Assembly: GCA_964447205.1 (NCBI GenBank)
Contig: CAYUSB010000023.1
Location: 21,614 to 85,613, forward strand
DNA: 64,000 nucleotides
Direction of reading: 5' to 3'
Source of the DNA: an uncultured Myxococcaceae bacterium
Lineage (GTDB): Bacteria; Myxococcota_A; Polyangia; Polyangiales; Ga0077539
How positions within the stretch are numbered: the stretch's first letter is position 1; every line of letters begins with the position of its first letter. Shown one piece after another: positions 44,182-62,561 of this stretch. Below the pieces are notes generated by a model. That model saw only the letters and a program-made list of their open reading frames with translations, was not told where the DNA came from and ran no database searches. A program made the translations under genes and the position numbers.

Positions 44182-47100
44182 TCAGGGGACGTTGGCGGCG
44201 CCCGGGGTGGGCATGGAGACGAAGCGCCAGTCGTTGGCGGCGTCGTCGGTGTCGCTGCCGTTGGGGACCCGGGCGAGCGACCCGGGGGCGGTGTTGGAGT
44301 CGGCCACGGTGACGGGCAGGACGGTGCCCTCGACCAGGTTGACCGTGCCCGCGATGCCCGTGATGACGGCGGCCCGGATGGGGCCCTCGTAGGACAGGGC
44401 GTCGAGCAGGGTGCCCGAGACCGTGTCAATGAGGGCGATGCCGTCGGGGGCCCCGTTTTGCAGCGCCTCATTGCCGATGGGGAAGCGCGCCACGCCCGCG
44501 GGAACCATCACCCCGGCGCTGGCCACGACGGCGTAGGCGCCGGGTGCGAGCATGCCCGTGAGGTTGATGCGCGAGTACTGCTGGTTGTTCGCTCCATTGA
44601 CGAGCACCAGCGCCACGTTGCTCAGGTCGATGGCGGACCGACTGGCGTTGTAGAGCTCGACAAACTCGGCGTTGTCGGTGCCGGGCTGGTCGTAGTCAAC
44701 CTCGTTGATCACCAGCCCCCCCGCGGCGCCTTCCACCACGCTGAGGGTGGCCATGCGGGTGCTGCTGCCGAGGGTCGCCGTCACCGTGGCCATGCCCGCC
44801 ATGGGGCCTGCGGTCACGTCAAACATGGCCGACAGGGTGTTGGCCGGGATGGTGACCCTGGCCGGGGCCGTGGCGCCGCCGGTCGCGGCGATGGTGACCA
44901 TCGTGCCGCCGGTGGGGGCCGGGATGTCGAGGGTGACCGTGAAGGTCGTGGGAGTCCCGGGGCCCGCCGTGGCCGTGGCCGGGGTGAGACCCGCGAGGGC
45001 AGGGGCCTCGTTGGCGCCGAGCACACGCACCTGGGCGGTGCGGGAGACCATCCCGAGGGTGGCCGTGAGGGTGTAGGGCATCGCCCGGGCGGTGACACCC
45101 GTGACGGGCACCACGGCGCTCGCGACGCCGCCAGGGATCACCACGTCGGCGACGGTGAGGCCCGGGTCGTTGGAGCGCACGGTGATGGTGGTGGGGGCCA
45201 TCACGGCGCGGGCGAGGCGCACGGTGAGGGCCGCGGGGAAGGTGGGCCCGGCGCCGCCGCCGACCCGTGCGAAGACGGTCTCGGTGGGGAAGGGCGCGAG
45301 CTGCGCGGCCCCGGCCACGAGGTCGTCGGCGGAGCGCGGGTTGATCTTGGAGTTTTCCCGCGCAAAGATGAGCACGCCGGTGATGGAGGTAAACCGCTCG
45401 CCCATCACGGGGAAGGGGGCGGTGAGGTAGATCCCGTCGTCGACGCGGAGGTTGCCCGTCACGAGGTACTCGTTGGTGGGCGCGGCCTCGCCGCCTGCGG
45501 GGGGGGGATTGGGGTTGGTGACCTCGACATCGGCCACGCGCACCACGACGCCTTCGAGGGCCGCGGCGCGCATCCCGCCGGTGGCGATCTCGGCGGGGGT
45601 GACCATCACGGGCGGGGGCAGGGCGACGCCCATGGCGAGGGAGGTGACGGTGCCGCCGGTGAGCTGGATCTGGCCGAAGAAGTCGGCCACCGTGGCGTTG
45701 GCGACGGTGACGCGCTCGCCGGGGCGCACCATCGGGACGGCGCCGGTGTAGACGAAGAGGCCCGAGGCGTCGGCGCCCATGTAGCCCATGTCGCCGGGGG
45801 CGACCTGCATGTAGAAGCCGTTGCGGGAGAGGGCCGTCACGACGGGGCCGGTGACGGTGACCCGGGCCCCCACGGCGGCCATGCCGCGCTTGACGGCGTA
45901 CACCGTGGAGGGGCAGGCCGAGCCGGCGGGGTTGGGCGCCATGGGGCAGGGGTCGCAGACGTCGCCGAGGCCGTCCCTGTCGCTGTCGGCCTGGTCGGGG
46001 TTGGCCACGTCGGGGCAGTTGTCGGCGGCGTTGAGGATGCCGTCGGCGTCGCGGTCGTTGGGGTTGGGGGCCACGCAGGTGGTGGTGTTGGGGTTGATGG
46101 GGCAGGGGTCGCAGGCGTCGCCGACGCCGTCGCGGTCGCCGTCGGCCTGCATCCCCATGTCCAGGGGGCGCACGGGGTTGAACACGCCGGGGCAGTTGTC
46201 CATGGCGTTGACGATGCCGTCGCCGTCCATGTCATCGGCGGACGACATGCCCGTGTACCGCGTCGACCCGCGCACGACGGGGTTGGGCAACGAGCCCATG
46301 GCGTTGCGCTCGGGCAGGCAGGTGGGCTCGTTGGCGGGTTCGCCGCAGAAGAAGAGGGGGTAGCGGTTGTTGTTGGCGGCGGTGAGGGCCGACAGGCGTC
46401 GGCCTCCGAGGTCGCGGGCGACGCAGACCCGCTTGGCGTTGCCGCACACGTCGAGGGGGTCGCAGGCGTCGCCTCCGGGCAGGGCGGCCACCACGGGGGC
46501 CTCGCCGTAGAGGGCCGTGCCGCCGCGGAGCACGAGGGCCACATCGGCGGGGGTGGCGCCGATGACGGCGCGGTGATCGCGGCGCATGCGGGCGTTGAAG
46601 ATGGCGAGGTCGGCCACGCGGCCCGGGGCGATCAACCCGATGGCGTCGTCGACCGCGAGAGAGGCCGCGGCGTCGCGGGTGGCCATGAGCCACAGGGCCT
46701 CGTCGGTGAAGTAGCGCCCGAAGAAGCTCGCGTTGAGGGTGTCGGCGCACTGCAGCTCGCGGAGCATGTTCATCGAGCCCGAGACGATCCAGTCGGAGCC
46801 GAGGGAGATGAGCACCCCGAGGCGGGCGTACTCGGTGACGCGGGCCGTGTCGCCGTAGAGGGTGATGTTGGAGCGCGGCGACCAGATGAGCGACGTACGA
46901 TCCCGGGCCATCTCGGCGATGTCCGTGGGCAGGAGGGCCACCCCGTGCACGAAGGCGCTCTGGGGCTGCACGAGGTCGGTGGGGCCCTCGCGCATGCAGA
47001 GAAACTCGTTGCGGGCCTCGGGGCCGATGCCCTCGGCCACGTGCGGGGCGTAGGCGTCGAGCCTCGCGATGGACGCCGCCGTGTCGATGGAGGGATACCG

Positions 47101-47994
47101 GCACCCCATGGTGAGGGTCTCGCCGCCGGAGTCGCCGAGGGGGAAGGTCTCGTAGCGCACCTGGGGCTGCCCGAGTCCGTCCATGGTGCCGCGGTCGAGG
47201 TTGCGCAGGAAGCCCGGGACGCCGCCCGAGCCGTTGACCGACGTGGCGCCGCCGAGCACGAAGCGCAGCTCGCCCCAGGCGACCTGGTCGTTGGAGGCCG
47301 CGCCGGCGGAGCGGAGCCGGGTGTGCCCGCGGGCTCCGCGGCGCCAGTCGTGGCGGTGCTCGTAGCGCTCGGCGGTGCGGGTGTACGGGTTGTTCTGCGC
47401 GAAGGTGAGGTGGTCGTGGGCGTTGATGAGGCCCGGGGAGACCACCCCGTCGGGGCACACCACGGCCGTGGCCCCCACGGCCCCCGTGGCGGCCCGGCAG
47501 TCGCAGGCGGCGCACTGAATCCGCCCCATGGGGTCGACCAGCACCTGCCCGCCCCGCAACACTTCCCCCGGCGTCAGGATGTCGCCCGTGATGAGCAGGG
47601 CGGCCGAGCCCGCCGTCACCTGACAGGTCCCCGTCGGGAGCGAAGGCAGGGAGTCGCCCGGACACATCGTGACCCGCGGCTCGACGGGCCGGACCCCTCC
47701 GTCGGGGATCGGGCCTCCGTCGGGGATCGGGCCTCCGTCGGGGGGCGTGCCTCCGTCGGGGATCGGGCCTCCGTCGGGGGGCGTGCTTCCGTCGGGGATC
47801 GGGCTTCCGTCGGGGATCGGGCTTCCGTCGGGGATCGGGCTTCCGTCGGGGAGGGGCCCCGCGTCGGTGCTGCTGTCTCCGGGGGGCGTGTCATTGACCA
47901 TGGGGCCGGCGTCGGTGCCTGCCCCGTTTTCTGAGCTGCACGCCCCAGCGGCGAGGCCCAGGGTCAACAAGATCCACGGATGAATGGGTCGCAT
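44182..47994 (-). CDS. Large surface lipoprotein: amidohydrolase domain, TSP3 repeats, OB-fold, Ig-like domains and lamin-tail domain
   Basis: LGLAAGAC lipobox; [24 protein letters not shown] metal ligands; [30 protein letters not shown] (TSP3); [19 protein letters not shown] (OB); [22 protein letters not shown] (LTD). Confidence 0.85.
47697..47858 (-). repeat. 18-bp tandem repeat, 9 copies, encoding (P-I/T-P-D-G-G/S)n linker
   Basis: Units (C/T)TCCGTCGGGGATCGGGC and CTCCGTCGGGGGGCGTGC counted from 47697 to 47858. Confidence 0.92.
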
Positions 47995-48074
47995 CAAGAG
48001 AAGCCTCCACAAAGGGGAACGGGACCCTATCACGCCTGCGGGCCCTCGCGGGGCTGGCGCGGAGGCCGCGGGCA

Positions 48075-48578
48075 ATGGCACGGTGGAGCCTCATAGGACT
48101 CCCGATGCCCCTCGACCCAGCCTTCGTCGCCGACTGCCCGTATGGGCCTGATGGACAACTGCTTGACGAGATCCTGCTCGTCGACACCGAGCGCAGCCTC
48201 GTGCGGGCCCGGATGCCCACCCACGAGGACCTCCCCATCACCCGCGAGCAGCGGGCCCACCCCAAGCTCCACCCGCGGCACATCTCGGGGGGGTTGATGG
48301 TGCACATGACTGGGATCATGGGCTTTGCGCACGCGTATTACGTCCTCGGGCTGCGGCACCGGGAGGGCTGGGTGGGGTACGGGGCGAGGATCCACGCGGC
48401 CCGGTTTCACGCCCTGGCCGTCCCGGACGCGCCGATGGTGTTGGAGATCCAGGCCAAACAATTGCGGATCGGCGAGCGGCGCGGCCTCGGGCGGTACGAC
48501 CTGCGGTTTTTTCAGGGGGAGACGCTGGTGTACGAGGGCGACCAGACGGCCTGGTGGGAGAAGATCGCCCTGGAGTGA
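48075..48578 (+). CDS. HotDog-fold protein (FabZ/FabA-like)
   Basis: [13 protein letters not shown] (cf. FabZ PH.YPFLLVD), [23 protein letters not shown]; the catalytic Glu of FabZ is not evident. Confidence 0.65.
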
Positions 48579-51244: not shown

Positions 51245-51973
51245 GTGTCAACACTCCCTCCCCCGCCGTGCACGCGCCCCTCCCGCCCACCGGAGCCCCG
51301 TGCGCCCGGCTGGCTGCGCGGCGAGAGCTTCTTTGTCGCGTGGTACGGCGACCCGGCCGCGGCGCCCCGCGAAGCGGCGCGTGTGCGCGACGCGCGTCCC
51401 GCGTTCGTGGTCGTCGGCGCGGGGCTGCACGCGCGCCCCGAGGTGCCGGCGTTCTTCCGCGCGGGGGCGGTGCGCACAGTCGCGTACGTGGCGACGGCGT
51501 GGGGACGGCGCGACGCGTCCGACGTGGCGCGCGAGGCGGCGTGCGCGGGCGCGTCGGGCTACGACGGCGTGTTCTTCGACGAGATCGACCCCGCGGCCGA
51601 TGGGTTCAACCGCGCCGCCGCGGCCGCCGCGCGCGCCGGGTCCGACCGAATCGTGGTGATGAACACCGGGCGGGCGGCGGTTCCCGACGCGCTCTTCGAC
51701 GTGGCCGACGTGGTCTCGGTCGAGAACCAGTGGGACCGTGCCCTCTCGCCCGCGGGACTCCCCCCGTGGCGCTGGATGGCCGTGCAGGGCGACCCCGCGG
51801 CGCTTGCCGCCCCGTCGCTCGACGTGGCGCTTGCGCGGCTGGCGGCGTTCCGGGCGGCGGGGGGCGGGTGGTACTACTCGGGGCCCTGGGCGCCCGAGGG
51901 CTCGACGCACTGGCGTCTCGCCGACTGGCTCGAAGACTTCGCCGCCGCCGCGCGCGCCCTGCCCCCGCCGTGA
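51245..51973 (+). CDS. Spherulation-specific family 4 protein (Sph3-like, GH135 alpha-1,4-N-acetylgalactosaminidase-like)
   Basis: AYVATAWGRR, GYDGVFFDE, IVVMNTG (cf. V.NPG), DVADVVSVEN (cf. T.E), GGWYY; start uncertain and no clear signal peptide. Confidence 0.78.
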   Translation: MSTLPPPPCTRPSRPPEPRAPGWLRGESFFVAWYGDPAAAPREAARVRDARPAFVVVGAGLHARPEVPAFFRAGAVRTVAYVATAWGRRDASDVAREAACAGASGYDGVFFDEIDPAADGFNRAAAAAARAGSDRIVVMNTGRAAVPDALFDVADVVSVENQWDRALSPAGLPPWRWMAVQGDPAALAAPSLDVALARLAAFRAAGGGWYYSGPWAPEGSTHWRLADWLEDFAAAARALPPP

Positions 51974-51986
51974 GCGCGAAGGGCGT

Positions 51987-52886
51987 TCAACGCGGGCGCG
52001 ACGCCGTCGGCCAGATCGAGAGGGTAGGGCATCGGGACTGGGGCGGCGGGTGCCACGACCGTGGGGGGCACGCCGGGGCGACGGAGGGGCAGCGGGAGGG
52101 CGCGCGGGAGGCCGCCGCAGGCCGCCACGTCAGGACGCGTGCGCGGGGGACGGCCGGCTCGGCGGCGCGGCGGGGCACGCCCGGGAACACCGCGGCGAGG
52201 CCGGCGGTGAGGGCGTCGTGGCGGGCGGTGGTCCAGGCGGCGATGGGGCGGTCGAGGGCTGCCGCGAGGTCGCGCGCGCGCGTGAGGAGCCGCGCGACGT
52301 CGCCCGACCCGCCGGGCGTGAGCGGCGCGGCGAACCACACCCGCCGCGCGTGGACCTCGCGCACCACGGCCAGCGCGGGGCGCCCTCGCTCAGGCTGCAC
52401 GGCGTCGAGCGAGAGGGCGAGCGTGGGCACGTCGCGGTAGGCCTCTCGCAGCGGTTCGGGGTCGGTGCGGGGCTGCTCGACCAGCTCGGCGTAGCGGGCG
52501 ACGTAATACGCCAGGGCGTCGTCGGAGAGCCCGATGGAGTGCTCGGCGGCGAGGTCAGCCCGGAGCTGCGCGACGCTCTGCTTGCGCTCGGCGCGGCGCT
52601 GCCCGAGCCACGCGAACACCTCCCAGTCGATCAGCCAGCGCGGGGGCGCGAGGCCCAGCTCCGCGCCCGGAGAGTACGTCCGGCGCGCGCCGGGGCACGA
52701 CGGGTCGCCACAGTGCATCAGCTTGCACGTCACCTGGAGCGGCCCGCCGAACAGGTAGAGCCGGCGGTGTCGGTGGTCGCAGATGCGCATCGGCCGCGCA
52801 CACACGCCGCACGGGCGCTCCTCGTCGGAGGGTTCGAGGATCAGCTTGCGAAAGACGGATCCGGCAGGCCAGCGGTGAGCAACCAT
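51987..52886 (-). CDS. Transposase-derived protein (Zn-ribbon plus HTH plus truncated DDE-like region), probably non-catalytic
   Basis: CGVC..CDH..CGDPSC, FAWLGQRR...IGLSDDAL..Y, LSLDAVQPERG..LAVVRE...RVWFAAPL; AGGAG SD; ends in a low-complexity tail; no flanking IRs seen. Confidence 0.65.
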   Translation of the reverse strand: MVAHRWPAGSVFRKLILEPSDEERPCGVCARPMRICDHRHRRLYLFGGPLQVTCKLMHCGDPSCPGARRTYSPGAELGLAPPRWLIDWEVFAWLGQRRAERKQSVAQLRADLAAEHSIGLSDDALAYYVARYAELVEQPRTDPEPLREAYRDVPTLALSLDAVQPERGRPALAVVREVHARRVWFAAPLTPGGSGDVARLLTRARDLAAALDRPIAAWTTARHDALTAGLAAVFPGVPRRAAEPAVPRARVLTWRPAAASRAPSRCPSVAPACPPRSWHPPPQSRCPTLSIWPTASRPR

Positions 52887-52920
52887 CGGTCTCCTCGGCA
52901 GCGCTTCGCGTCGTTGCCCG

Positions 52921-53206
52921 TTAGCCTACGACCGTTGACGCATTGAGACCATTACCATTTCGCGCGTGGCGGTTCAAGTACTACGACGCCCTATTTCAAC
53001 GCGGAATGCGCGGTGCGGAGGTGCACCGTAAACCTACAAGTAAGGGTGGGTGATCGGCTGTCGCCCCATCGGCCTACACGACAGGTGGACCGCGCAGGGC
53101 GGCGCCACGAGCTGACGGACGAGCGCTTAGCCTTCAAGCGGCAACCGCGACGGAGGCGACAAGTGGGTTATCACGGGCATTCGTTGAGGGTTTAGCCTTC
53201 GAGCGG
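52921..53206 (+). promoter_or_regulatory. Three copies of a 14-bp motif TTAGCCTWCRASCG, candidate regulator binding sites
   Basis: TTAGCCTACGACCG 52921-34, TTAGCCTTCAAGCG 53127-40, TTAGCCTTCGAGCG 53192-205, in a divergent, relatively AT-rich intergenic region. Confidence 0.5.
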
Positions 53207-53354
53207 AGGACCCTGTTTCTACGAGAGATCCAATGCGGTGAGCGCGCTCACGGTCTTTGTCGATTTTCAACGAACACGCTTGACCCTCGGTTTGAGAAGG
53301 GGGATGAATGACATCGTCACCGGCGCCCAACAGATAGGGACGGGAGGCGCACCG

Positions 53355-53497: not shown

Positions 53498-55486
53498 ATG
53501 AACAAGCGTTGGTCCAGCGTCCTCGGTCGTTTGAGCCTCGCGGCCTCGGTCTGCTTCGCAGCGCAGGGCTGCTACCAGGGCCCCGACGTTGAATCGACCT
53601 CTCAAGCGGTTCGGTCCTCGGAGGTCCATCGCGGCCCGGGCTCGGTCCATCGCGGCCCGGGCTCGGTCCATCGCGGCCCGGTCTCGGTCGAGCACGGCCG
53701 CTCGCGGCCCCAGACCCTGGTGTCGACCACGTCGTCCAGGTCGTCGGCGCGCGTCGCCCCCTCCCTGACGCTCCCCCCGCGCAGCGCGCGGATCCTGGTG
53801 ATCTCGGCCGACGGCTCGGAGGCCGCCCTCCCCGCGATCCGCCAGGCGCTCGATTACCTCGGCACGCCCTACACCGTCCGCATCGCGACCACCGCGGGGC
53901 CGCTCACCGCCAACCAGCTCTCGGTTGACGGGCGCGGGAACTACCAGGGCGTGATCCTGACGACCGCGAGCCTCGCCTTCTACGACGGATCCGGCTGGCG
54001 CAGCGCCCTCAGCCCCGACGAGTGGCAGGTACTCTGGAACTACGAGGCCACGTACGCGGTGCGCCAGGTCTCCTGGTACACGTACCCCACGCCGGAGCTC
54101 GGCTTCGCCTGGGGCACCTCGGTCGACACCAGCGCCGTCGCCCTCGAGGTCAAGGTCACCGACGCCGGGCGGCAGGTGTTCCCGTACGTGACGCCCAACG
54201 CCCGGGTCGCGGTGCGCGACGCATACACCTACCTCTCGGTCGCCGCCGACCCGACGGCCACACCGCTGCTCACGGACGACGAAGGGCACGCCCTCGCCCT
54301 GGTCAACCGCTACCCCGACGGCCGCGAGAACCTCGCGCTCACCTTCGACTCGAGCCCCCACCAGGTCCACGCCCTTGTGTTCTCGTACGGCGTGATCGAC
54401 TGGGTGACCCGCGGGCTGTTCCTCGGCGCGCGCCACACGTACCTCTCCGCCCAGGTCGACGACATCTTCCTCGGCAACGACCTCTACACCGGCGGCGAGT
54501 ACCGGATGACCGGCGACGACCTGCGCGCCGCGGTCGCCTGGCAGCGCGCCCTGCAGGCCCGCCCGGCCAGCGCCGGACTGCGGCTCGACATGGTCTACAA
54601 CGGCGAGGGCACTGTCGCCGGCGAGTACCCCTCCGACACGCTCACCCCCGCGGCGAGCTCGCTCCAGGGCGAGTTCAAGTGGATCAACCACACCTACTCG
54701 CACCTGAACCTCGACGCCGTCGACTACGCCACCGCGTTCGACCAATACCGCGACAACATCCAGGTCGCCCAGCGCATGCGCTTCTCGGCCTTCACCCGCA
54801 CGAACCTCGTCACCGGCGAGGTCTCCGGGCTCTTCAACCCCGCCGCCATGCAGGCCGCGGCGGACGTGGGCGTGCGCTACGTCGTCTCCGACACCTCGCG
54901 CCCCGGCCAGGACAACCCCTCCCCCAACGCCGGGATCTACAACGCCCTGGCGCCCTCGATCCTGATGATCCCGCGGCGGCCGACCAACCTCTTCTACAAC
55001 GTCTCGACGCCCGAGCAGTGGGTCGCCGAGTACAACGACTTCTACCGCGTCTTCTGGGGCCGCGACCTGTCCTACAGCGAGATCCTCGACCGCGAGACCG
55101 ACGTGCTCCTGCGCTACATGCTCCGCGGCGAGATCGACCCGTGGATGTTCCACCAGTCCAACCTCCGCGCGTACGACGGCAGCCACACCCTGCTCGGCGA
55201 CCTCATCGCCCGGCTGCTCGAGCGCTACAACGCCCTCGTCACCCTGCCCGTCGTCAGCCCCACCATGGACGAGACCGGCCGCCAGGTGGCGTCCCGCATG
55301 CGCTTCAACGCCTCGGGCGTGACCGCGACCATCGTCCCCGGCCAGAGCATCACCCTCACCGCCCCGCGCGCCGCCGTCGTGCCCGTCACCGGCCTCGCCT
55401 CCCGCGGCGCCGAGTCGTACGCCGGCGAGACGATCTCGTACGTCAACCTCTCGGCCGGCGCCTCAGTCACCCTCCGCCTCGAGTAA
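53498..55486 (+). CDS. Agd3-like (CE18) secreted/lipoprotein polysaccharide deacetylase
   Basis: Signal ending AAQGC; ILVISADG..ALDYLGTPY N-domain; QVDDIFLG, RLDMVYNGEG, WINHTYSH, LVTGEVSGL, IPRRPTNLFYN, WMFHQSNL (DD/HxxxH/H metal set as in Agd3). Confidence 0.8.
   Translation: MNKRWSSVLGRLSLAASVCFAAQGCYQGPDVESTSQAVRSSEVHRGPGSVHRGPGSVHRGPVSVEHGRSRPQTLVSTTSSRSSARVAPSLTLPPRSARILVISADGSEAALPAIRQALDYLGTPYTVRIATTAGPLTANQLSVDGRGNYQGVILTTASLAFYDGSGWRSALSPDEWQVLWNYEATYAVRQVSWYTYPTPELGFAWGTSVDTSAVALEVKVTDAGRQVFPYVTPNARVAVRDAYTYLSVAADPTATPLLTDDEGHALALVNRYPDGRENLALTFDSSPHQVHALVFSYGVIDWVTRGLFLGARHTYLSAQVDDIFLGNDLYTGGEYRMTGDDLRAAVAWQRALQARPASAGLRLDMVYNGEGTVAGEYPSDTLTPAASSLQGEFKWINHTYSHLNLDAVDYATAFDQYRDNIQVAQRMRFSAFTRTNLVTGEVSGLFNPAAMQAAADVGVRYVVSDTSRPGQDNPSPNAGIYNALAPSILMIPRRPTNLFYNVSTPEQWVAEYNDFYRVFWGRDLSYSEILDRETDVLLRYMLRGEIDPWMFHQSNLRAYDGSHTLLGDLIARLLERYNALVTLPVVSPTMDETGRQVASRMRFNASGVTATIVPGQSITLTAPRAAVVPVTGLASRGAESYAGETISYVNLSAGASVTLRLE
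53623..53685 (+). repeat. 21-bp tandem repeat, 3 copies (VHRGPGS) in the deacetylase linker
   Basis: GGTCCATCGCGGCCCGGGCTC twice, then GGTCCATCGCGGCCCGGTCTC. Confidence 0.9.
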
Positions 55487-55493
55487 CCCCTCC

Positions 55494-56798
55494 TCAACCT
55501 GCAGGCGGCCGCAGCGAACGGCGCGACGCCCGCCCGCCGAGCCCCGCCCCCGGCGCACGCCGCAGGGGGAACAGCCCCATCAACGTCAAGGCCGCGACCC
55601 CGAGCAACGACCACACCGGCAGCGCCAGCGCCGGAAGCACCGTCGCCCACCCGCGCGGCGCGAGCGCACCCCACGTCGCCGCCGTGAGGATCAGCGCCCC
55701 GAGCGCCCGGCGAGCCCGACGCGCGGCGTGATGCCTCCGGGGCCCCCGCACCAGCATCAGCAACACCGCCACCGACGCGCAGCCCGCGACCAGCGCCGGC
55801 GACGTCGGCCCGGACGCGGCGCCCGCCCCGACAAGCCCCCGCCCCCCGATCGCCAGAAACGCCCCCAGCGTCTCGCCCAGCGCCAGCGGGAGCAGCGCCG
55901 GGAACCATCGCGCGCGAGGCAGCCGTCGCCGGGCCCCCACGCTCGCCACCGCGCTCGCAACCCAGGCGAGAACGCCGCCCGCGGGGTGCGTCAACGACGA
56001 GAGCAGCACCACCCGGGGCAGACGCCCCGCATGCCCCGTCGCACCGAGCGGCGAGGCGCATCCCCACGCCGCCACCAGCGGGGCCGCCCACGCGAGCGTC
56101 GGGCGCTGCCCCAGGACCACCGCTGCCAGAGGTGCCGCGCCCACCACCGCCGCCGGCCAGCGCCCCACGCCGGGCGCCAGCCGCACCAGGAGCGCCCCCG
56201 CGAGCGACGCGCACAGCCACGCGATCGCCGCGCCGAGCGCCGGCCCGCACGCCCGCGGCGGGAGCCCGACGAGCGCGCCCGCCCACACCGAGAGCATGTC
56301 CGTAGAGCCGTCGGGGGCCCGGCCGATGAACGCCGCCGACGCGACGCACGCCGCCAGCAGCGCCGCCCTGCCCGCCCACGCCACGCGCGCCTGCAGCGAG
56401 TGCCGGCCGTCGTCGGCCCGCGCCGCCGCGTCGAGGGTCTCACGCACCCTCGCTCGCCAGTCCGCCCGCATTGATGACACGAGCCGGTCGGCGCGCGAGG
56501 CGCGGCCCGCACGGGCGCTCACGTCCCGCAGCGACGGCTCGCGCCGCCGAAGCCGCGACGCCCAGATGACCACCGCCAGCATCCCCAGCAGCGCGCCGCG
56601 GGAGACCGCGCCGACGCACCACAGCAGCGTCATCGCGGAGCACAGAAGCAGCGCCGCTCGAAGGTGGCGCGCGACGCCGTCCCGCGGCAGGGAGCGGTCG
56701 GGCGCGAGGTGGGCGAGGTTGTAGAGCAGCGCGCCCCAGAGCAGGAGCCTCGCCGCGAGCAGGACCTGCACGGTGCGATGGAAGCCTTCAGGGTGCAT
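55494..56798 (-). CDS. Hypothetical polytopic membrane protein, last gene of the pelF/pelG-like operon
   Basis: ATG 56798 lies 5 nt after the PelG-like stop; about 10 hydrophobic segments; no family recognised. Confidence 0.6.
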   Translation of the reverse strand: MHPEGFHRTVQVLLAARLLLWGALLYNLAHLAPDRSLPRDGVARHLRAALLLCSAMTLLWCVGAVSRGALLGMLAVVIWASRLRRREPSLRDVSARAGRASRADRLVSSMRADWRARVRETLDAAARADDGRHSLQARVAWAGRAALLAACVASAAFIGRAPDGSTDMLSVWAGALVGLPPRACGPALGAAIAWLCASLAGALLVRLAPGVGRWPAAVVGAAPLAAVVLGQRPTLAWAAPLVAAWGCASPLGATGHAGRLPRVVLLSSLTHPAGGVLAWVASAVASVGARRRLPRARWFPALLPLALGETLGAFLAIGGRGLVGAGAASGPTSPALVAGCASVAVLLMLVRGPRRHHAARRARRALGALILTAATWGALAPRGWATVLPALALPVWSLLGVAALTLMGLFPLRRAPGAGLGGRASRRSLRPPAG

Positions 56799-56803
56799 GC
56801 GGC

Positions 56804-58360
56804 TCAGTACGCGGCGTAGTAGCGGTGGTCGATGCGCGCGAAGAAGCGCCGCGCGCGCATCATCATGCCCGCGGTGAACACCACGGCGCCGGCGGTCATC
56901 CCCGCGGCGGCGGCCTCGGGGGCCCACAGGCGCGAGGCCACATACCCGACCACCGCCGCGGTGCCCACCGCGGGCCAGAGCGCGCGCAGCACCGCTTCGC
57001 CGCGGGCCAGGGTGAAGAACCAGAGCGAGAGCAGCAGGCCCCAGGAGAGCACCTGGAAACCCGCGCCAAGCCACAAGAACGTGCGCGCGACGGCCGGGTC
57101 GAGTACCGAGGCGGCGAGTCGGTGGGCAAGTCCGCGCGCGGCGAGGTGGCGCGGCACCGCCCACGCGAGCGAGAGGTTGGCCGCCGAGACGGTCGTCAGC
57201 AGCGCGAACGAGCGCGCGCCGAAGCGCTTCATCGCCGCGCGGAAGTCCCCGCGCTGCCCGACCTTGAGCCCGTGCTGCAGGCTCTCAAGCCGCTCGTTGA
57301 AGGCGTGCACGAAGTGCTCGAGGAGGCTCATGGGCAGCACGAAGCTCGCGAGCGCCCACTCGGCGCCGAGCTCGTAACCGGCGTGGAAGCGCAGCAGCGC
57401 GGGCGCGGCGTGGGCGGGCGCGGTCCAGACCATCGCGCGGTCGAGGAAGATCAGCAGGAAGTACCCGAGGCCGTACACGATGAACGTGAGGTTGCTGCCG
57501 AGGATCACGTCGAGCCGACGCGCCCGCGAGCGGGCAGCGCTGCCGGGCGGCGGCGGGCCGAGCCGACGGGCGACCAGGAGCAGCGCCGCCAGCGCGACCG
57601 TGAGGATCATCCCGAGCTGCGCGCCGTGCACCGACGCGCCCTCGAACCGCACGAGGGCGCCGACCGCGATGGCGCCGAGCGTGGTGAGCGCCAGCGCCTG
57701 CACGCGCATCGCCAGCGCCTGCATCGCCGCGACCGAGACCCAGAGCCATCCGAGCGAGATGAAGTACGCGAGCGCGAGCGCGAAGAGCCGCCACGGGAGC
57801 GGCTCGAAGAGGAGCTGCAGCGCGACGGCGGTGGCGACGCAGGCCGCGCCCAGGGCGAACCCGACGCGCAGCAGGTCGCCGAGCACCTCGCGCAGGCGGG
57901 CCCCATCACGGGCGGGGTCGAGCACGTGCGCCTGCCGCCCGATGGTCATCACCATCGCCCCGGTGGCGACGAGGCTGGCGATCATGGCGAGCCCGACCGC
58001 GGTCGCCTGCGACTCGTCGTAGTCGAACGAGCCCACCAGCCAGTGCCGCGTGGCGAACCCGACCGCGAGTTGCGCGAGCATGGGCCAGGCGAAGAACGAC
58101 CCGCGCAAGAGCCGCCCGACGAACGCGAGCCACGGGCGCACGACGCCGTCGCGCGGCGGCATCGAGGATGGCCGCCACCGGGGCAGGGCGTGGAACACCT
58201 GCTCGGCGAACGCGAAGAGGTCGGGGCAGCCGAAGCGCTCGCGGGCGTCCTGGTCGCGCAGGCCTTCGGCCTCGAGCAGGGCGGCGACGGTCCACACGTC
58301 GAGCGGGCGGCGCGCGGTGGTCGCGAGGACCTCGGCCCAGTGGCGCGCCGGGTCGCTCAC
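56804..58360 (-). CDS. pelG: PelG-like exopolysaccharide exporter with extra N-terminal soluble domain
   Basis: GTG overlaps the pelF stop; N-terminal DVWTVAALLEAEGLRDQDARERFGCPDLFAFAE; about 12 TM; FLDRAMVW..YELGAEWA and C-terminal FFARIDHRYYAAY like PelG. Confidence 0.7.
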   Translation of the reverse strand: MSDPARHWAEVLATTARRPLDVWTVAALLEAEGLRDQDARERFGCPDLFAFAEQVFHALPRWRPSSMPPRDGVVRPWLAFVGRLLRGSFFAWPMLAQLAVGFATRHWLVGSFDYDESQATAVGLAMIASLVATGAMVMTIGRQAHVLDPARDGARLREVLGDLLRVGFALGAACVATAVALQLLFEPLPWRLFALALAYFISLGWLWVSVAAMQALAMRVQALALTTLGAIAVGALVRFEGASVHGAQLGMILTVALAALLLVARRLGPPPPGSAARSRARRLDVILGSNLTFIVYGLGYFLLIFLDRAMVWTAPAHAAPALLRFHAGYELGAEWALASFVLPMSLLEHFVHAFNERLESLQHGLKVGQRGDFRAAMKRFGARSFALLTTVSAANLSLAWAVPRHLAARGLAHRLAASVLDPAVARTFLWLGAGFQVLSWGLLLSLWFFTLARGEAVLRALWPAVGTAAVVGYVASRLWAPEAAAAGMTAGAVVFTAGMMMRARRFFARIDHRYYAAY

Positions 58361-59865
58361 GCGACGCGCCCCCGCGAGCCTGCGTCGAGCAGACGGTAGA
58401 TCTCCTCGTAGCGCTTGAGCTGGCGCTGGACGGTGAAGAGCGAGACCACCCGGTCGCGGGCGAGGCGGGCGAGGCGCCGGCAGCGCTCGTGGTCGGTGAG
58501 AAGCGCCGCCATGGCCCCTCCGAGCGCCTCGGGGTCGCGCGGGGGGACCACGATGCCCGTGTCGCCCACGGCCTCGCGCACGCCGCCCACGTCGGTCACC
58601 ACGCAGGGCACCCCGCAGGCCATGGACTCCAGCACCGTGTACGGAAAGCCCTCGGAGATGGACGACAGCACGCTGATGTCCCCCTCGCAGTAGAGCGTGT
58701 GGGGCTGGGCGTGGTGGCCCCGGAGGAACACCACCTCGCCGAGGTCGAGCGACGCGATCAGCGCGCGGCAGCGCTCGGTGTACGGCACGTCCGCGGTGAG
58801 CGAGCCGTAGATGTTGAGCAGCAGGTCGGGCACCGTGCGGCGCGCGACGGCCGCCGCCCGGATCATCGTCTCGATGTCCTTGAGGGCGAAGATGCGCGCC
58901 GCGGCGACGGCGACGGGCCGCCCGCGCAGCGCCTCGGGCTTGGGCGACGGGCGGAACTTGGAGGTGTCGACGCCGTTGTGAACGACGCGGATGCGCTCCT
59001 CGGGCGCGCCCCACGGGAGCTGCCAGCGGGTGTTGCAAGTGGCCACCGGGGCGATGACGTCGGCCACGGCGTAGCAGGCCCGCGCGATCACCCGGGCGAC
59101 CCCCATGAGGAACCGCCGCACGAACGCGCCGTGCCCGCTCGCGCTGACCGAGAGGTAGCGCTCGCGGAGGTAGACCCCGTGCTCGGTGAGCAGAAAGCAC
59201 GTCCCGCGCTCGAGGCGGGCGACGATTCCCGGCAGCGCGCACGACGACGCGACCGTCGCGTGGAACACCGTCACCCCCTCCACCCGGAACTCGAGGGGCA
59301 TGAGCAGGTGGTAGAGCCACCGGGCGCAGAGGCTGACCTCCGCGAGCCGCGGCTCGGGGTCGCGCCCGGCTTCCTCGGACGCCGCGACGAAGGCGTCCCA
59401 TACCGCGGCGGTGCGCATCACGCAGCGGTAGTCGTGGCGCCGCAGAAAGCGCCCCATCGCCACCAGGGCGTCGACCAGGGCGTCGTCGTCGGCGGCGGCG
59501 GCGGCGGGCGTGAACACCTCGCGCAGCACCGCCGAGAGCGCGGGCACGAAGCCCTCTCGGACGCGGCGCTCGGTGGAGCGCGACTGCCGCTCCAGCACGC
59601 CCGAGAACGGCCCCCGCAGGGAGCGCGTGGAGGGGTCTCCGGTGGGCCAGAGCGCGACCTGGTGCACGTCGCGGATGTTGGGCGCGATGGGCAGCGCCGG
59701 CCCGACGTGGTCGGAGCCGGTGACCGCCAGCACGGAGAAGTCCACGCCGTCGATGCCGGCGCAGAGCTGCTCGCACCACGTGCTGACGCCGCCGCCGTGG
59801 AAGGGGTACGTCCCCTCGGTCGCGAGCATCACGTGGGGGCGGGAGGGATCTGGGGAGGCGCCCAC
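58357..59865 (-). CDS. pelF: PelF-type GT4 glycosyltransferase (DUF3492 plus GT4)
   Basis: LATEGTYPFHGGGVSTW, HATVASSC, LLTEHGVYLRER, RVVHNGVD, RIFALKDIETMIRA, SSISEGFPYTVLESMACG (E-x7-E), TDVGG. Confidence 0.9.
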   Translation of the reverse strand: MGASPDPSRPHVMLATEGTYPFHGGGVSTWCEQLCAGIDGVDFSVLAVTGSDHVGPALPIAPNIRDVHQVALWPTGDPSTRSLRGPFSGVLERQSRSTERRVREGFVPALSAVLREVFTPAAAAADDDALVDALVAMGRFLRRHDYRCVMRTAAVWDAFVAASEEAGRDPEPRLAEVSLCARWLYHLLMPLEFRVEGVTVFHATVASSCALPGIVARLERGTCFLLTEHGVYLRERYLSVSASGHGAFVRRFLMGVARVIARACYAVADVIAPVATCNTRWQLPWGAPEERIRVVHNGVDTSKFRPSPKPEALRGRPVAVAAARIFALKDIETMIRAAAVARRTVPDLLLNIYGSLTADVPYTERCRALIASLDLGEVVFLRGHHAQPHTLYCEGDISVLSSISEGFPYTVLESMACGVPCVVTDVGGVREAVGDTGIVVPPRDPEALGGAMAALLTDHERCRRLARLARDRVVSLFTVQRQLKRYEEIYRLLDAGSRGRVA

Positions 59866-59872
59866 GGCGCGT

Positions 59873-60883
59873 TCAGGCGGCGACGAGCGCGCGCCAGGAG
59901 GTGGTGAAATCGCGCCACCGCGCGACGGCGAGGCGCGCGCCGAGGGCGGGGTCGGTGCCGCGGCGAAGGAGCGCGTCGGCCCGCGCCGCCCAGGCCTCGC
60001 GCGACCAGGCGAGGCGGGTGATCAGCGGGCTCCCCCGGAGCGCGGCCGCGTCGCTGAGGAGAACCGGGATCCCGCGGGACTCGGCCTCCAGGGCGGCGAA
60101 GGGGCTGGCCTCGAGCCGCGACGGGAGCGCCAGCACGCCGATGGGGCTGCGGCCCCAGGGGTCTCCCTCTCCGAGCTCCCAGTCGGTCGCGTCGGAGCCC
60201 CAGCGCTCGCCGACGGGGATGCCGATCGCGACCGAGGCGCCGCCGAACGCGCGCGCGAGGTCTTCGAAGCGGTCGATGCCCTTCACCCTGGAGAAGCGCC
60301 CCACGAAGCCCAGGCGGGCGGGCGAGGCGTCGACGAGGGTGGACACGGCGGCCGGCGGCGGGACGGCGTTGGGGATCATCCGCACCGTGCGGGCGCCCTC
60401 GCTGAAGGCGCGGCGGGTGGTGCGGTCGGTCACGCCCACGACGCCGCGGCAGGCGAGCGCCACGCGGCGGCGGCGGCGACGCGCGCGCTCGGCCTCCAGC
60501 GGGCGCGAGGCGGCGGTGAGGGGCCGACCCGACTCGCACACGGCGGCGCCGTGGAGGATCTCCCGCACCAGGTCGCCGTGCTCGACGTACCAGGTGCGCC
60601 GGGCGAGGTCGGGGCGCACACGCAGCAGCGCCTCGGCGGCCTCGAGGCCGCTGGCGAGGTAGGTGGCGGCGTCGGGCACCGCCCGCAGGTCGTCGACGCG
60701 CTCGACCGATCGCGCGCTTGGGGGCGGGGCGAAGCGGTCGGCGCGGCAGGGCCCCGGGCCGAGGCTGACGACGCCGACGCGACAGGCGTCGAGCGCGAGG
60801 AGCAGGTGCTGCGTCCAGGTGGAGAGGCCGCCCGTGCGCTGCGGATAGGCGCCCTCGGTGACGAGGCAGACGTCGAGAGTCAT
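59873..60883 (-). CDS. Second, shorter PelF-like GT4 glycosyltransferase
   Basis: CLVTEGAYP..TGGLSTW, YVEHG, RMIPNAV, FVGRFSRVKG, LPSRLEASPFAALEA (E-x7-E); GGAG SD. Confidence 0.75.
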   Translation of the reverse strand: MTLDVCLVTEGAYPQRTGGLSTWTQHLLLALDACRVGVVSLGPGPCRADRFAPPPSARSVERVDDLRAVPDAATYLASGLEAAEALLRVRPDLARRTWYVEHGDLVREILHGAAVCESGRPLTAASRPLEAERARRRRRRVALACRGVVGVTDRTTRRAFSEGARTVRMIPNAVPPPAAVSTLVDASPARLGFVGRFSRVKGIDRFEDLARAFGGASVAIGIPVGERWGSDATDWELGEGDPWGRSPIGVLALPSRLEASPFAALEAESRGIPVLLSDAAALRGSPLITRLAWSREAWAARADALLRRGTDPALGARLAVARWRDFTTSWRALVAA

Positions 60884-61133: not shown

Positions 61134-62561
61134 ATGTCGTTCCTTCGGGATCTTTTCAGCGACAGCAGGGAGCGCGCGCGGCCGCTCCACGACGCGCTGA
61201 TCGAGGCGCTCGGGAAGGTCGACGGGGGCGACGAGCCGGGCGCGCTCGACGTCCTCGCCGAGGCGGTGCGCGGGCGCTTTCAGCTCGCCTTGCTGGAGCT
61301 TTACATGCGCGACCGCGGCGTGCTGCGCCGCGTGGGCACGGCCACCGACGTGGGGGTCGACCGCAGGAGCATCCGCCCCGGGCCGCTCGACGGGGCCGTC
61401 CCCGCGGCGGCGTTGCAGAACGTGGGGGCGACCGGGTCGCTCAGCGGGTCGGGCTGGGTGGCGCTGCCGGGCGGGCGGGTGTGGTGGCTGGCGGCCGACG
61501 CGCAGGCGTTGTCGCGGAGCGTGGCCGAAGACGCCCCGGCGGCGCGGGCGATGGCGGGGGCTGTGATGCTCGCCGCGCGCGGGGCGATGACCCCGCAGAA
61601 CGACCGCTCGCAGTGGATCCACGACGACGTGCAGCGGCGCGTCGCGCGGGCGGCAGCGGACACCCGCGCCGCGGTGGAGCTGTTCCTGCGAATGGCGCTG
61701 ACGGGCTTTTCGGGCGAGGGCGGCGCGGTGGTCAGCATCGAGGAGGGCACGGGCGAGCGCGTGACGTGGGCCTCGGCCGGCGCGGTGGCGGCCGACGCGG
61801 CGGGCGTCGACGCGGTGCGGTCCTCCGGGCGCTGGGTCGCGGAGGTGGTCGATGCGGCGCGGTTCGCCCCAAGCGCGCGTTCTGTGTATGCCGTGGCGCA
61901 GCCGCATCGGGGGGGCGTGCTGTTGGTCGCGATCGCGGCGGGCGCGGCGGGAGCGACGGCGCCGGGCGAGGTCGCGTACAGTCGGCTCGAACAGGCGGTG
62001 GCGGTGATCCGGTCGTTGGTCGAGGGGCAGGAGGCGGCGCGGCGCGCGAGCGCGCACATTCAACAACTCGTCGACGGGCTCGTGACGATGGTGGAGACGA
62101 TCGCGGAGCCGTCGCGGGGGCACCACGCGCGGGTGTCGTCCGAGGCTGAGCGCATCGGGCGTCGGCTGGGCGTCGAGCCGGAGCGCTTCGCGGCGCTGAT
62201 GCGGGCGGTGCAGGTGCACGACATCGGGCGCATCGGGGTGGCGGCCGACCCGACAGGGAACGTGGTGGAGTTCCTGCACCCGACGGTGGGCGGCTCGCTG
62301 CTCGAGGCGCTGGGCGAGCCGCAGAACGTCTCGGACCTTGTGCGGGTGCACCACGAGCGCTGGGACGGACAGGGCTTTCCGCTCGGGGTGGCGCCCGCGG
62401 AGACCGACCTGGCCGCCTGGGCGCTGGTCGCCGCGCAGGACTACGCGGACCACGGGGAGGAGCCCGCGGACGAGGCTTCGAGGCGGCGGTGGGCGCGCGA
62501 TCACGGCCCGGGGCTGTTGCCGCCGGCGGTGCTCGAAAAGCTCTCGCAGGGTTGGGCGTAG
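61134..62561 (+). CDS. GAF-like plus degenerate HD-GYP domain protein
   Basis: C-terminal GHHARVS, VHDIGRIG, LHPTVG, HHERWDGQGFPLG; shortened HD-to-HP loop and no RPY motif. Confidence 0.78.
   Translation: MSFLRDLFSDSRERARPLHDALIEALGKVDGGDEPGALDVLAEAVRGRFQLALLELYMRDRGVLRRVGTATDVGVDRRSIRPGPLDGAVPAAALQNVGATGSLSGSGWVALPGGRVWWLAADAQALSRSVAEDAPAARAMAGAVMLAARGAMTPQNDRSQWIHDDVQRRVARAAADTRAAVELFLRMALTGFSGEGGAVVSIEEGTGERVTWASAGAVAADAAGVDAVRSSGRWVAEVVDAARFAPSARSVYAVAQPHRGGVLLVAIAAGAAGATAPGEVAYSRLEQAVAVIRSLVEGQEAARRASAHIQQLVDGLVTMVETIAEPSRGHHARVSSEAERIGRRLGVEPERFAALMRAVQVHDIGRIGVAADPTGNVVEFLHPTVGGSLLEALGEPQNVSDLVRVHHERWDGQGFPLGVAPAETDLAAWALVAAQDYADHGEEPADEASRRRWARDHGPGLLPPAVLEKLSQGWA

Follow-up and report, generated by a model that had tools for sequence, protein, structure and literature searches.

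Can a bacterial transposase that has lost its catalytic site be kept beside a host gene as a DNA-binding regulator, with remnants of its own transposon ends as operators? The question is raised by tnpL, a transposase-derived gene in a 64-kb stretch of DNA (64,000 nucleotides of contig CAYUSB010000023.1, assembly GCA_964447205.1; the whole stretch is called the window below), where it is transcribed divergently from a gene for an Agd3-like exopolysaccharide deacetylase. A first-pass annotation, made from the letters of this DNA, had described tnpL as an eroded transposase gene and had proposed exaptation as a regulator rather than a fresh insertion. The tnpL product was found to be a catalytically dead, truncated transposase, and its retained domain is under purifying selection comparable to that on Agd3; that a dead transposase is kept under selection at this locus is considered highly probable. 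The full chain, in which a domesticated insertion sequence (IS) remnant with sites derived from terminal inverted repeats (TIRs) would act as a local regulator of Agd3 and/or tnpL, is given a probability of roughly 55%. All three loci at which tnpL was found originate from uncultured groundwater metagenome populations.

The tnpL protein and its parent family

The gene, the parts of its product and its divergent partner were delimited as follows.

51987..52886, minus strand: tnpL (transposase-derived gene), 299 codons plus stop, ATG start
52891..52896, minus strand: Shine-Dalgarno-like GAGGAG, 4 nt 5' of the tnpL ATG, read from the sequence
52695..52811, minus strand: zinc-ribbon region, codons 26–64, CxxC ... 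CDHRH ... HC-x4-C
52164..52421, minus strand: remnant RNase H-like core, codons 156–241, beta1-beta2-beta3-alpha1-beta4-alpha2-beta5
51990..52154, minus strand: Pro/Arg/Ser-rich disordered tail, codons 245–299, without family homology and weakly constrained
53498..55486, plus strand: Agd3-like exopolysaccharide deacetylase, CBM87 and CE18 domain, divergent partner of tnpL

Homology of the protein was assessed with curated libraries and with a profile of its own family. A Pfam scan of the tnpL protein gave no match, and in NCBIfam only the ISKra4 model NF033572 was hit in the N-terminal region (16.4 bits, E = 0.004, cutoff 205). The ortholog P0002 from locus L001 reached 19.4 bits with the same model, and full-length relatives did not match it. 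These relatives stay under every curated cutoff (MULE PF10551, 17–25 bits versus 27.6; IS256 model NF033543, 17–20 versus 150; IS66, about 20 versus 180), one of them having a precomputed PF10551 match. With full-length members below all curated thresholds, the initial wording of an unclassified transposase family was fair, and filing tnpL in a named IS family was ruled out by the sub-threshold scores. A hidden Markov model (HMM, 539 positions) was built from 10 full-length proteins of the parent family, whose transposases comprise 517–585 aa. The tnpL protein scored 248.6 bits against it (E = 8e-77, HMM positions 2–237 of 539), and its residues ~2–240 are 30–49% identical to family members. 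By this homology, the protein can be assigned to the transposase family of the parent IS.

The parent itself is a genuine, active, apparently unclassified IS of the Mutator superfamily. In one Gemmataceae metagenome-assembled genome (MAG; Planctomycetota, CAVVFU01) it measures 1,815 bp, with 24-bp TIRs and 8-bp AT-rich target duplications, and is present in at least 13 copies of >99.7% identity; the same architecture was seen again in ~30 other genomes. The copies in this MAG correspond to L008:9895-11709 and loci L009–L027. At L008, the transposase is split into two frames near a lysine-rich ..DEKKGG.. stretch, which could reflect programmed frameshifting or decay, whereas other members consist of one open reading frame (ORF) of 517–585 aa. 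At L023:9887-13537, two parent-IS copies are arranged head to tail only 8 bp apart.

The zinc ribbon had been described as intact. In an alignment of 12 family members, C26, C29, C59 and C64 are invariant together with the CDHRH motif, and the AlphaFold model (AF2) shows the region as beta hairpins carrying the Cys ligands (predicted local distance difference test score, pLDDT, 82–92). The model has a predicted TM-score of 0.70, with pLDDT 80–94 for residues 1–244, and three helices are placed between the hairpins and the core. The best PDB matches in Foldseek were 6xg8 and 6xgx of the ISCth4 transposase (IS256-family, Mutator-like; E = 1.4e-6, probability 1.00, 231 columns); TM-scores are low (0.19–0.25), so that the similarity holds at the level of domains only, and retroviral integrase cores rank next. 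A sequence-profile search of the PDB returned coiled-coil noise only. On the evidence of the predicted structure, the tnpL protein belongs to the Mutator superfamily at the level of the fold.

The state of the catalytic site was read from the family alignment. Characteristic family motifs are LSIDGLQPEKGHE (containing the first catalytic Asp, D1), W.SDKQDAF (the second, D2) and PHRYCxNHF, followed by a variable insert, VLDYCAxVRGILND and a C-terminal DNLxLERWF..PKGHERRIHG block; by analogy with IS256 and MULE enzymes, this block should carry the catalytic E. The motifs SDKQDA and HRYCxxH, which had been given for the family in the first-pass annotation, were thus correct. As had also been noted there, the first acidic motif is kept in tnpL (LSLDAVQPERG; D161, 52404–52406, invariant in the family) and the second Asp and the CxxH are lost. 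The window reads WTTARHDA (52212–52235) where the family has SDKQDA, the D2 position being occupied by A in the window, P in L001 and S in L091, and PRRAA (52161–52175) in place of HRYCxNH. The loss goes further than described: no trace of the C-terminal half (HMM positions 240–539) was found with the family HMM in six-frame translations of the window and L001 loci. An active DDE transposase needs D, D, E and CxxH, of which D1 alone remains, and the catalytic triad is not intact on alignment. Because it is truncated and D2, CxxH and the E region are gone, the tnpL protein cannot be an active transposase.

The low-complexity tail (amino acids 245–299) was likewise recognised correctly at first reading and is predicted to be disordered (pLDDT 29–51). 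In a close relative (~97% identical, runs X2–X5), the tail has gained 8 bp at 52007 and lost 3 bp at 52111 and is therefore regarded as unconstrained. Its interpretation as a simple frameshifted continuation of the family sequence was ruled out, as no C-terminal match occurs in any frame or downstream.

The strong ribosome-binding site of the first description was recovered as the GAGGAG element, and Shine-Dalgarno-like sequences stand at the equivalent position before both orthologs (AGGAGA in L001, GGGAG in L091). GC content at third codon positions (GC3) is 0.90–1.00 over codons 21–240, the usual coding signature of the host genome; in the last ~55 codons the periodicity is altered, with GC content at second positions (GC2) up to 0.8–0.9 and GC2 >= GC3. 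A stretch of ~83% GC within the gene (52176–52374) is absent or of very low depth in the close-relative assemblies (runs X2–X5), probably as an assembly or coverage artefact of extreme GC.

Conserved position and selection

Three lineages with tnpL were compared: the window, L001 (with L002–L004) and L091/L092. In four Logan contigs (L001–L004), P0002 (294 aa, 56–58% identical) lies divergent from the Agd3 ortholog; it leaves the family HMM at position ~237–239, matching the truncation point in the window, and ends in a similar tail. The third lineage was reached by following the Agd3 protein (69% identical). Its tnpL ortholog in L091 is 71% identical, lies divergently upstream of Agd3 and reads WTTSRQDA and ...PDVPR before the contig ends at residue 239. 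The surroundings have been rearranged between lineages. In the window, pelF-pelG (56828–59865) are located on the far side of Agd3 and convergent to it, and in L001 (4859–7932) they directly follow the tnpL ortholog, starting 77 nt past its stop; from this difference it follows that the tnpL-Agd3 pair survived rearrangement as a unit. A shared, non-mobile genomic position in several lineages, which is a mark of domestication, was thereby observed.

A more distant Agd3 cluster (L093; GCA_037024455.1, JBAIGR010000332.1; Agd3 identity 55%) is without a tnpL-type gene. Here, two GH114 genes flank Agd3, accompanied by GAF (PelD-like), TPR/HEAT (PelE-like), PelF and PelG genes; the cluster is a hybrid Pel-type operon with Agd3 in place of PelA.

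Selection was estimated by pairwise Nei-Gojobori analysis of codons 1–239 in three lineage comparisons. The ratio of nonsynonymous to synonymous divergence (dN/dS, omega) was 0.47, 0.38 and 0.42 for tnpL and 0.45, 0.48 and 0.42 for Agd3 in the same comparisons; at a GC3 of ~0.95 dS is compressed and absolute omega inflated for all genes, so that only the comparison between genes and a simulation are informative. Amino-acid identity was 0.58–0.71 for tnpL and 0.67–0.71 for Agd3. No gap column occurred in the 239 tnpL codons across three lineages, against 7–34 in Agd3, and the intergenic DNA was barely alignable. For the simulation, tnpL was mutated to the observed nucleotide divergence regardless of codon position (2,000 copies). 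The observed identity of 0.58 exceeded the simulated mean of 0.44 and maximum of 0.50, and in the other comparison 0.71 was observed versus a mean of 0.59 and a maximum of 0.67. Constraint is strongest in residues 1–100, which include the zinc ribbon (omega 0.21–0.38), and weakest in residues 101–150.

Orthologs at the same place and dN/dS below 1 had been put forward in the first-pass annotation as checks of exaptation, and both were found: the gene stands in the same divergent position beside Agd3 in L001 and L091, and its omega of 0.38–0.47 is Agd3-like, with conservation above all neutral simulations. With orthologs in place, the coding sequence constrained and the triad lost, exaptation is favoured over a fresh insertion. 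The outcomes set beforehand as refuting it (absence from homologous clusters together with neutral evolution, or an intact triad) did not occur.

TIR-like sites and the proposed regulator

Sites in the 611 bp between tnpL and Agd3 (GC ~61–65%, below that of the window) were scored with a weight matrix. The underlying TIR set comprised 58 ends from 31 independent IS copies, all in register as CAAYGRYCCG-N6-R-GCTARRA; inner TIR positions 7–24 were used for the matrix, and none of the three tnpL loci was in the training set. The following elements were located.

53190..53207, minus strand: site C, TCCGCTCGAAGGCTAAAC in gene sense, 19.5 bits, rank 1 of 127,966 window positions
53125..53142, minus strand: site B, GCCGCTTGAAGGCTAAGC in gene sense, 11.4 bits, rank 2 in the window
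52919..52936, minus strand: weak candidate site A, AACGGTCGTAGGCTAACG in gene sense, ending 32 nt 5' of the ATG, below 3 bits
53278..53285, plus strand: GCTTGAC(C/A) block with -35-like TTGACC, conserved in all three intergenic regions, candidate Agd3 promoter element

Site C, whose core recurs unchanged at a site in L001, is 15/16 identical to the inner TIR of the L083 IS (TCCGCTCGAAGGCTAA versus TCCGCTCAAAGGCTAA) and site B 13/14 identical to that of the L074 IS (CCGCTTGAAGGCTA versus CCGCTTGAGGGCTA). The best window match after these two reached 9.9 bits. In L001, the top 3 matches (17.0, 15.1 and 13.5 bits) all fall in the orthologous intergenic region, and in L091 the top 4 (17.2, 16.2, 16.1 and 9.4 bits; next best 4.1) are all intergenic. 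All sites have the left-end orientation relative to tnpL, antisense maxima being 0.8–4.1 bits. First-order Markov simulations gave p ~0.0006–0.002 for the top match and 0–0.001 for two matches at the observed strength, and are conservative, as the models learn from regions that contain the motifs. Site A lies within direct-repeat family D1 and aligns with the 9.4-bit site found 34 nt 5' of the L091 ATG. Site A was at first taken for a remnant of the outer TIR (CAACGG...) that had lost 4 nt; after the L091 comparison this was given up in favour of an ungapped, weak inner-type site.

The TTAGCCT repeats of the first-pass annotation are real and belong to direct repeats in this region, of which a 15-nt core (TAGCCTTCGAGCGGA) is identical in window and L001. 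Proposed there as DNA-binding targets, the motifs are sequences derived from the transposon's own TIRs, which would give the predicted DNA-binding regulator a concrete mechanism. The accompanying statement that terminal inverted repeats are missing held in part: no flanking inverted pair is present, but the intergenic repeats are themselves TIR-like. Mobile-element features were sought at tnpL, and no flanking inverted TIR pair, no target duplication and no second copy within the 64-kb window were found; antisense scores downstream of the gene and in the intergenic region did not exceed 0.8 bits. The full 24-nt TIR matrix fails in the window for lack of conservation at the six outermost positions (CAACGG). 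Profile matches in active ISs are confined to the two ends, which makes an array of sites in one orientation atypical of an IS.

Spacing between sites is 65 nt in the window, 51 and 90 nt in L001 and 19 and 28 nt in L091, within a constant order: Agd3 ATG, 148–212 nt, GCTTGAC(A/C) block, 60–110 nt, array, 120–300 nt, tnpL ATG. No array was found upstream of Agd3 in L093, the cluster without tnpL, and an Rfam scan of the intergenic region gave no match. The persistence of arrays in three lineages suggests a function.

The following course of events is proposed. A parent-family IS would first have landed 5' of the Agd3-like gene, in a shared ancestor of three or more lineages. Everything after strand beta5 would next have been removed in one step; D2 and CxxH decayed, and the zinc ribbon, helical region and partial RNase H-like core have survived with host codon usage under purifying selection. 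IS transposases generally recognise the inner TIR via N-terminal domains, and the outermost bases serve cleavage. By analogy with other transposases, the remaining N-terminal part of tnpL may recognise inner-TIR sequence, of which two to five same-orientation copies (core CCGCTYGWAGGCTAA) persist between tnpL and Agd3 in every lineage, the outermost bases (CAACGG, the expected cleavage end) having decayed. This combined loss of cleavage-proximal and retention of binding-proximal bases is what a binding regulator predicts. The protein would bind the array and regulate the divergent promoter region, acting on Agd3 and/or tnpL and in L001 possibly on pelFG. With the array 60–110 nt upstream of the -35-like element, activation from upstream or repression by looping is more plausible than simple occlusion of the promoter; whether the effect would be positive or negative is not predictable. 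Expression, binding and regulation by the tnpL product are predicted here from sequence features. A more specific version, in which a one-step truncation turned an IS transposase into a dedicated transcription factor and multiplied TIR copies were co-opted as an operator array controlling Pel/GAG-type deacetylation, is held tentatively, at somewhat less than even odds.

Several observations weigh against this proposal. Apart from the omega inflation already stated, residues 101–150 are weakly constrained (omega 0.5–1.0), and over codons 1–171 the comparison with the ~97%-identical relative gave 9 nonsynonymous (N) and 6 synonymous (S) changes, which on so few changes is not significantly below neutral; for Agd3 in the same comparison 17 N and 7 S were counted. 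Site number and spacing vary among lineages, so that decay of tandem IS insertions may account for the arrays rather than selection, and tandem copies do occur in the parent family (the L023 pair), from which left-end arrays could stem. A sigma-70 consensus scan of the intergenic region detected no canonical promoter and no -10, which leaves site positions relative to promoters uncertain. A search for RNA-seq runs containing tnpL found none. An exhaustive phmmer search returned one close tnpL cluster only and no other close relatives, and a scan of metagenome contigs with ortholog-specific patterns yielded ordinary IS family members only (identity <=46%). The gene is known from three lineages, all uncultured and one with a contig-cut ortholog.

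Among alternative explanations, a functional protein with functional sites that does not regulate Agd3 survives best, although it is judged unlikely. The protein could be purely autoregulatory, or an architectural DNA-binding protein with another target. Transposases commonly autoregulate by binding a promoter-proximal TIR, and the sites do lie upstream of the tnpL start, 120–300 nt away. However, the array is nearer to the Agd3-side -35-like block than to the tnpL ATG, and autoregulation alone gives the host no benefit, so that purifying selection as strong as on Agd3 would be left unexplained.

The truncated protein might instead inhibit transposition by occupying the TIRs of active IS copies elsewhere, its adjacency to Agd3 being accidental. 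Precedent for such trans-dominant negative regulation is found in the Tn5 inhibitor protein and the P-element KP repressors; tnpL keeps exactly the part expected to bind TIRs, without catalysis, and the parent family is highly active in some genomes. Inhibition nevertheless fails to explain why TIR-like arrays were kept in three otherwise barely alignable intergenic regions and why the tnpL-Agd3 pair survived rearrangement, and no other IS copy or TIR was found within the 64-kb window. This explanation is considered improbable.

A non-functional relic, that is, a decaying IS fragment with a frame open by chance in GC-rich DNA, is very improbable and is largely refuted already. In its favour, 5–11% of neutrally mutated copies stayed stop-free at this GC, the tail clearly lacks constraint, the N/S ratio at short range does not fall significantly below the neutral expectation, and tnpL is rare in databases. 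Against these points, none of the 2,000 neutral simulations reached the observed identity in either comparison, and the 239 codons are free of indels in three lineages beside gap-rich intergenic DNA. The Shine-Dalgarno sequence is conserved and GC3 fully host-like. All zinc-ligand Cys are conserved, synonymous changes included: two of the six synonymous changes in the close relative are TGT>TGC in the ligand codons C29 and C59. Very recent horizontal copies of a relic are contradicted by the synonymous divergence between the three loci (proportion of synonymous differences, pS, 0.35–0.45).

A still-mobile, non-autonomous element, in which tnpL and a left end are mobilised in trans by a full-length transposase, is hardly credible: left-end-like sequences do lie upstream in the correct orientation, but no inverted right-end TIR was found downstream, where the gap between the tnpL stop and the neighbouring gene is a mere 13 nt; the window sites have lost their outer TIR bases, and tnpL occupies the same locus in three lineages.

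Surrounding genes and known systems

The gene convergent with tnpL, whose end is separated from the tnpL stop by those 13 nt, is the following.

51245..51973, plus strand: Spherulin4-family (Sph3-like) gene, PF12138, 37 bits versus cutoff 30.2

On the other side, the Agd3-like partner was identified by Pfam (Agd3_CE, 5e-36; CBM87_Agd3, 3e-17), and its ATG at 53498 agrees with the starts of its orthologs; divergent transcription from an Agd3-like gene, as first annotated, is thereby established across 611 bp for a protein with CBM87 and Agd3_CE domains. Its N-terminal region (53624–53689) contains 3 tandem copies of a 7-residue unit (VHRGPGS / VHRGPVS) after a signal- or lipoprotein-like segment, and substitutions at 53652, 53669 and 53670 fall inside this repeat in the close relative (run X2). 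Beyond Agd3 follow PelG-like and PelF-like genes, a DUF3492 fragment and an HD-domain protein. The locus is a Pel/GAG-type exopolysaccharide setting of the type described for bacterial Agd3 homologs (PMC7229062).

ORFs 55494–57164 (minus) and 56828–58357 (minus) share ~340 nt and are both without a Pfam match; the product of the latter is 40% identical to the L001 PelG-like protein, and the true start of the former probably lies further downstream than its listed start. Adjoining the PelF-like gene, ORF 59873–60883 (minus, 336 aa) shows just part of DUF3492, at its N terminus, and a faint GT1 signal and may be a degenerate PelF paralog. The HD / HD_5-domain protein at the edge of the exopolysaccharide cluster (61134–62561, plus) is a possible signalling phosphodiesterase, which would give the locus a second regulator, of a conventional kind. 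Just upstream of the exopolysaccharide locus, 44182–48081 (minus) encodes a secreted 1,299-aa multidomain protein of unusual architecture, with an amidohydrolase, thrombospondin type 3 repeats and a lamin-tail domain.

Among the closest known systems is the parent IS. Residues 2–239 of tnpL align end to end with its HMM, both have the zinc ribbon, the helical region and the D1 motif, and the intergenic sites match its inner TIR. Its nearest curated families are IS256, ISKra4 and IS66, and it is abundant in Planctomycetota MAGs. It differs by its TIR pair, 8-bp duplication, D, D, CxxH and LERWF..KGHERR block and many copies; tnpL has none of its mobility features. Since the active parent survives in other genomes, the model of binding kept, cleavage lost and ends turned into operators is directly testable.

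Shortened or alternative products that keep end-binding without catalysis are generally known from Tn5 (Inh), IS1 (InsA) and the P element (KP). These reside inside mobile elements and regulate transposition, whereas tnpL keeps its host position in three lineages and is not enclosed by an element.

Bacterial Agd3 operons of the Pel/GAG-like type share with the window an Agd3-like CE18 deacetylase, a PelF-like GT4, a PelG-like membrane protein and a glycoside hydrolase, and the published description of bacterial operon content mentions no transposase-derived gene (Bamford et al. 2020, PMC7229062). If the proposal is correct, a regulator is added to bacterial Agd3/Pel-like exopolysaccharide clusters, and the cassette would control how far a Pel/GAG-type biofilm polysaccharide is deacetylated and, through this, how adhesive it is. 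With three uncultured lineages only, the biological reach may be narrow.

The closest prokaryotic analogy is that of RAYTs with their REP/BIME repeats, the best-known example among prokaryotes of a single-copy, domesticated transposase that stays associated with short repeats from its transposon ends (PMC3333891). They are catalytically active HUH/Y1 enzymes with hundreds of genome-wide REPs; tnpL is of DDE type, dead, and has its sites in one intergenic region. A literature search, whose coverage was incomplete, found no bacterial DDE-IS derivative kept as a locus-bound cassette of protein and TIR sites.

Transposase domestication into transcription factors is a major theme of eukaryotic genome evolution, and clear bacterial cases from DDE-type ISs are scarce. 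Catalytically dead Mutator transposases act as transcription factors in eukaryotes and have arisen repeatedly; FHY3, FAR1 and MUSTANG belong to the same superfamily, combine an N-terminal zinc DNA-binding domain with a degenerate DDE core, have lost transposition, and are under purifying selection at a fixed genomic position (bioRxiv 10.64898/2026.08.24.746577). tnpL would act in a comparable way but is not a member of those families. They are eukaryotic, have a full-length core and a SWIM domain, and serve dispersed target promoters in regulation that has been shown experimentally; tnpL is bacterial, cut after beta5, and its regulatory role is predicted. The locus documents the transition on both sides, with a catalytically dead transposase and, next to it, sites recognisably derived from the inner portion of that enzyme's own TIR. 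If the proposal holds, tnpL would be a prokaryotic counterpart of the plant Mutator-to-FHY3/FAR1 transition, with the difference that the protein is kept next to an array from its own TIR, as a compact, self-contained regulator-operator cassette at one locus.

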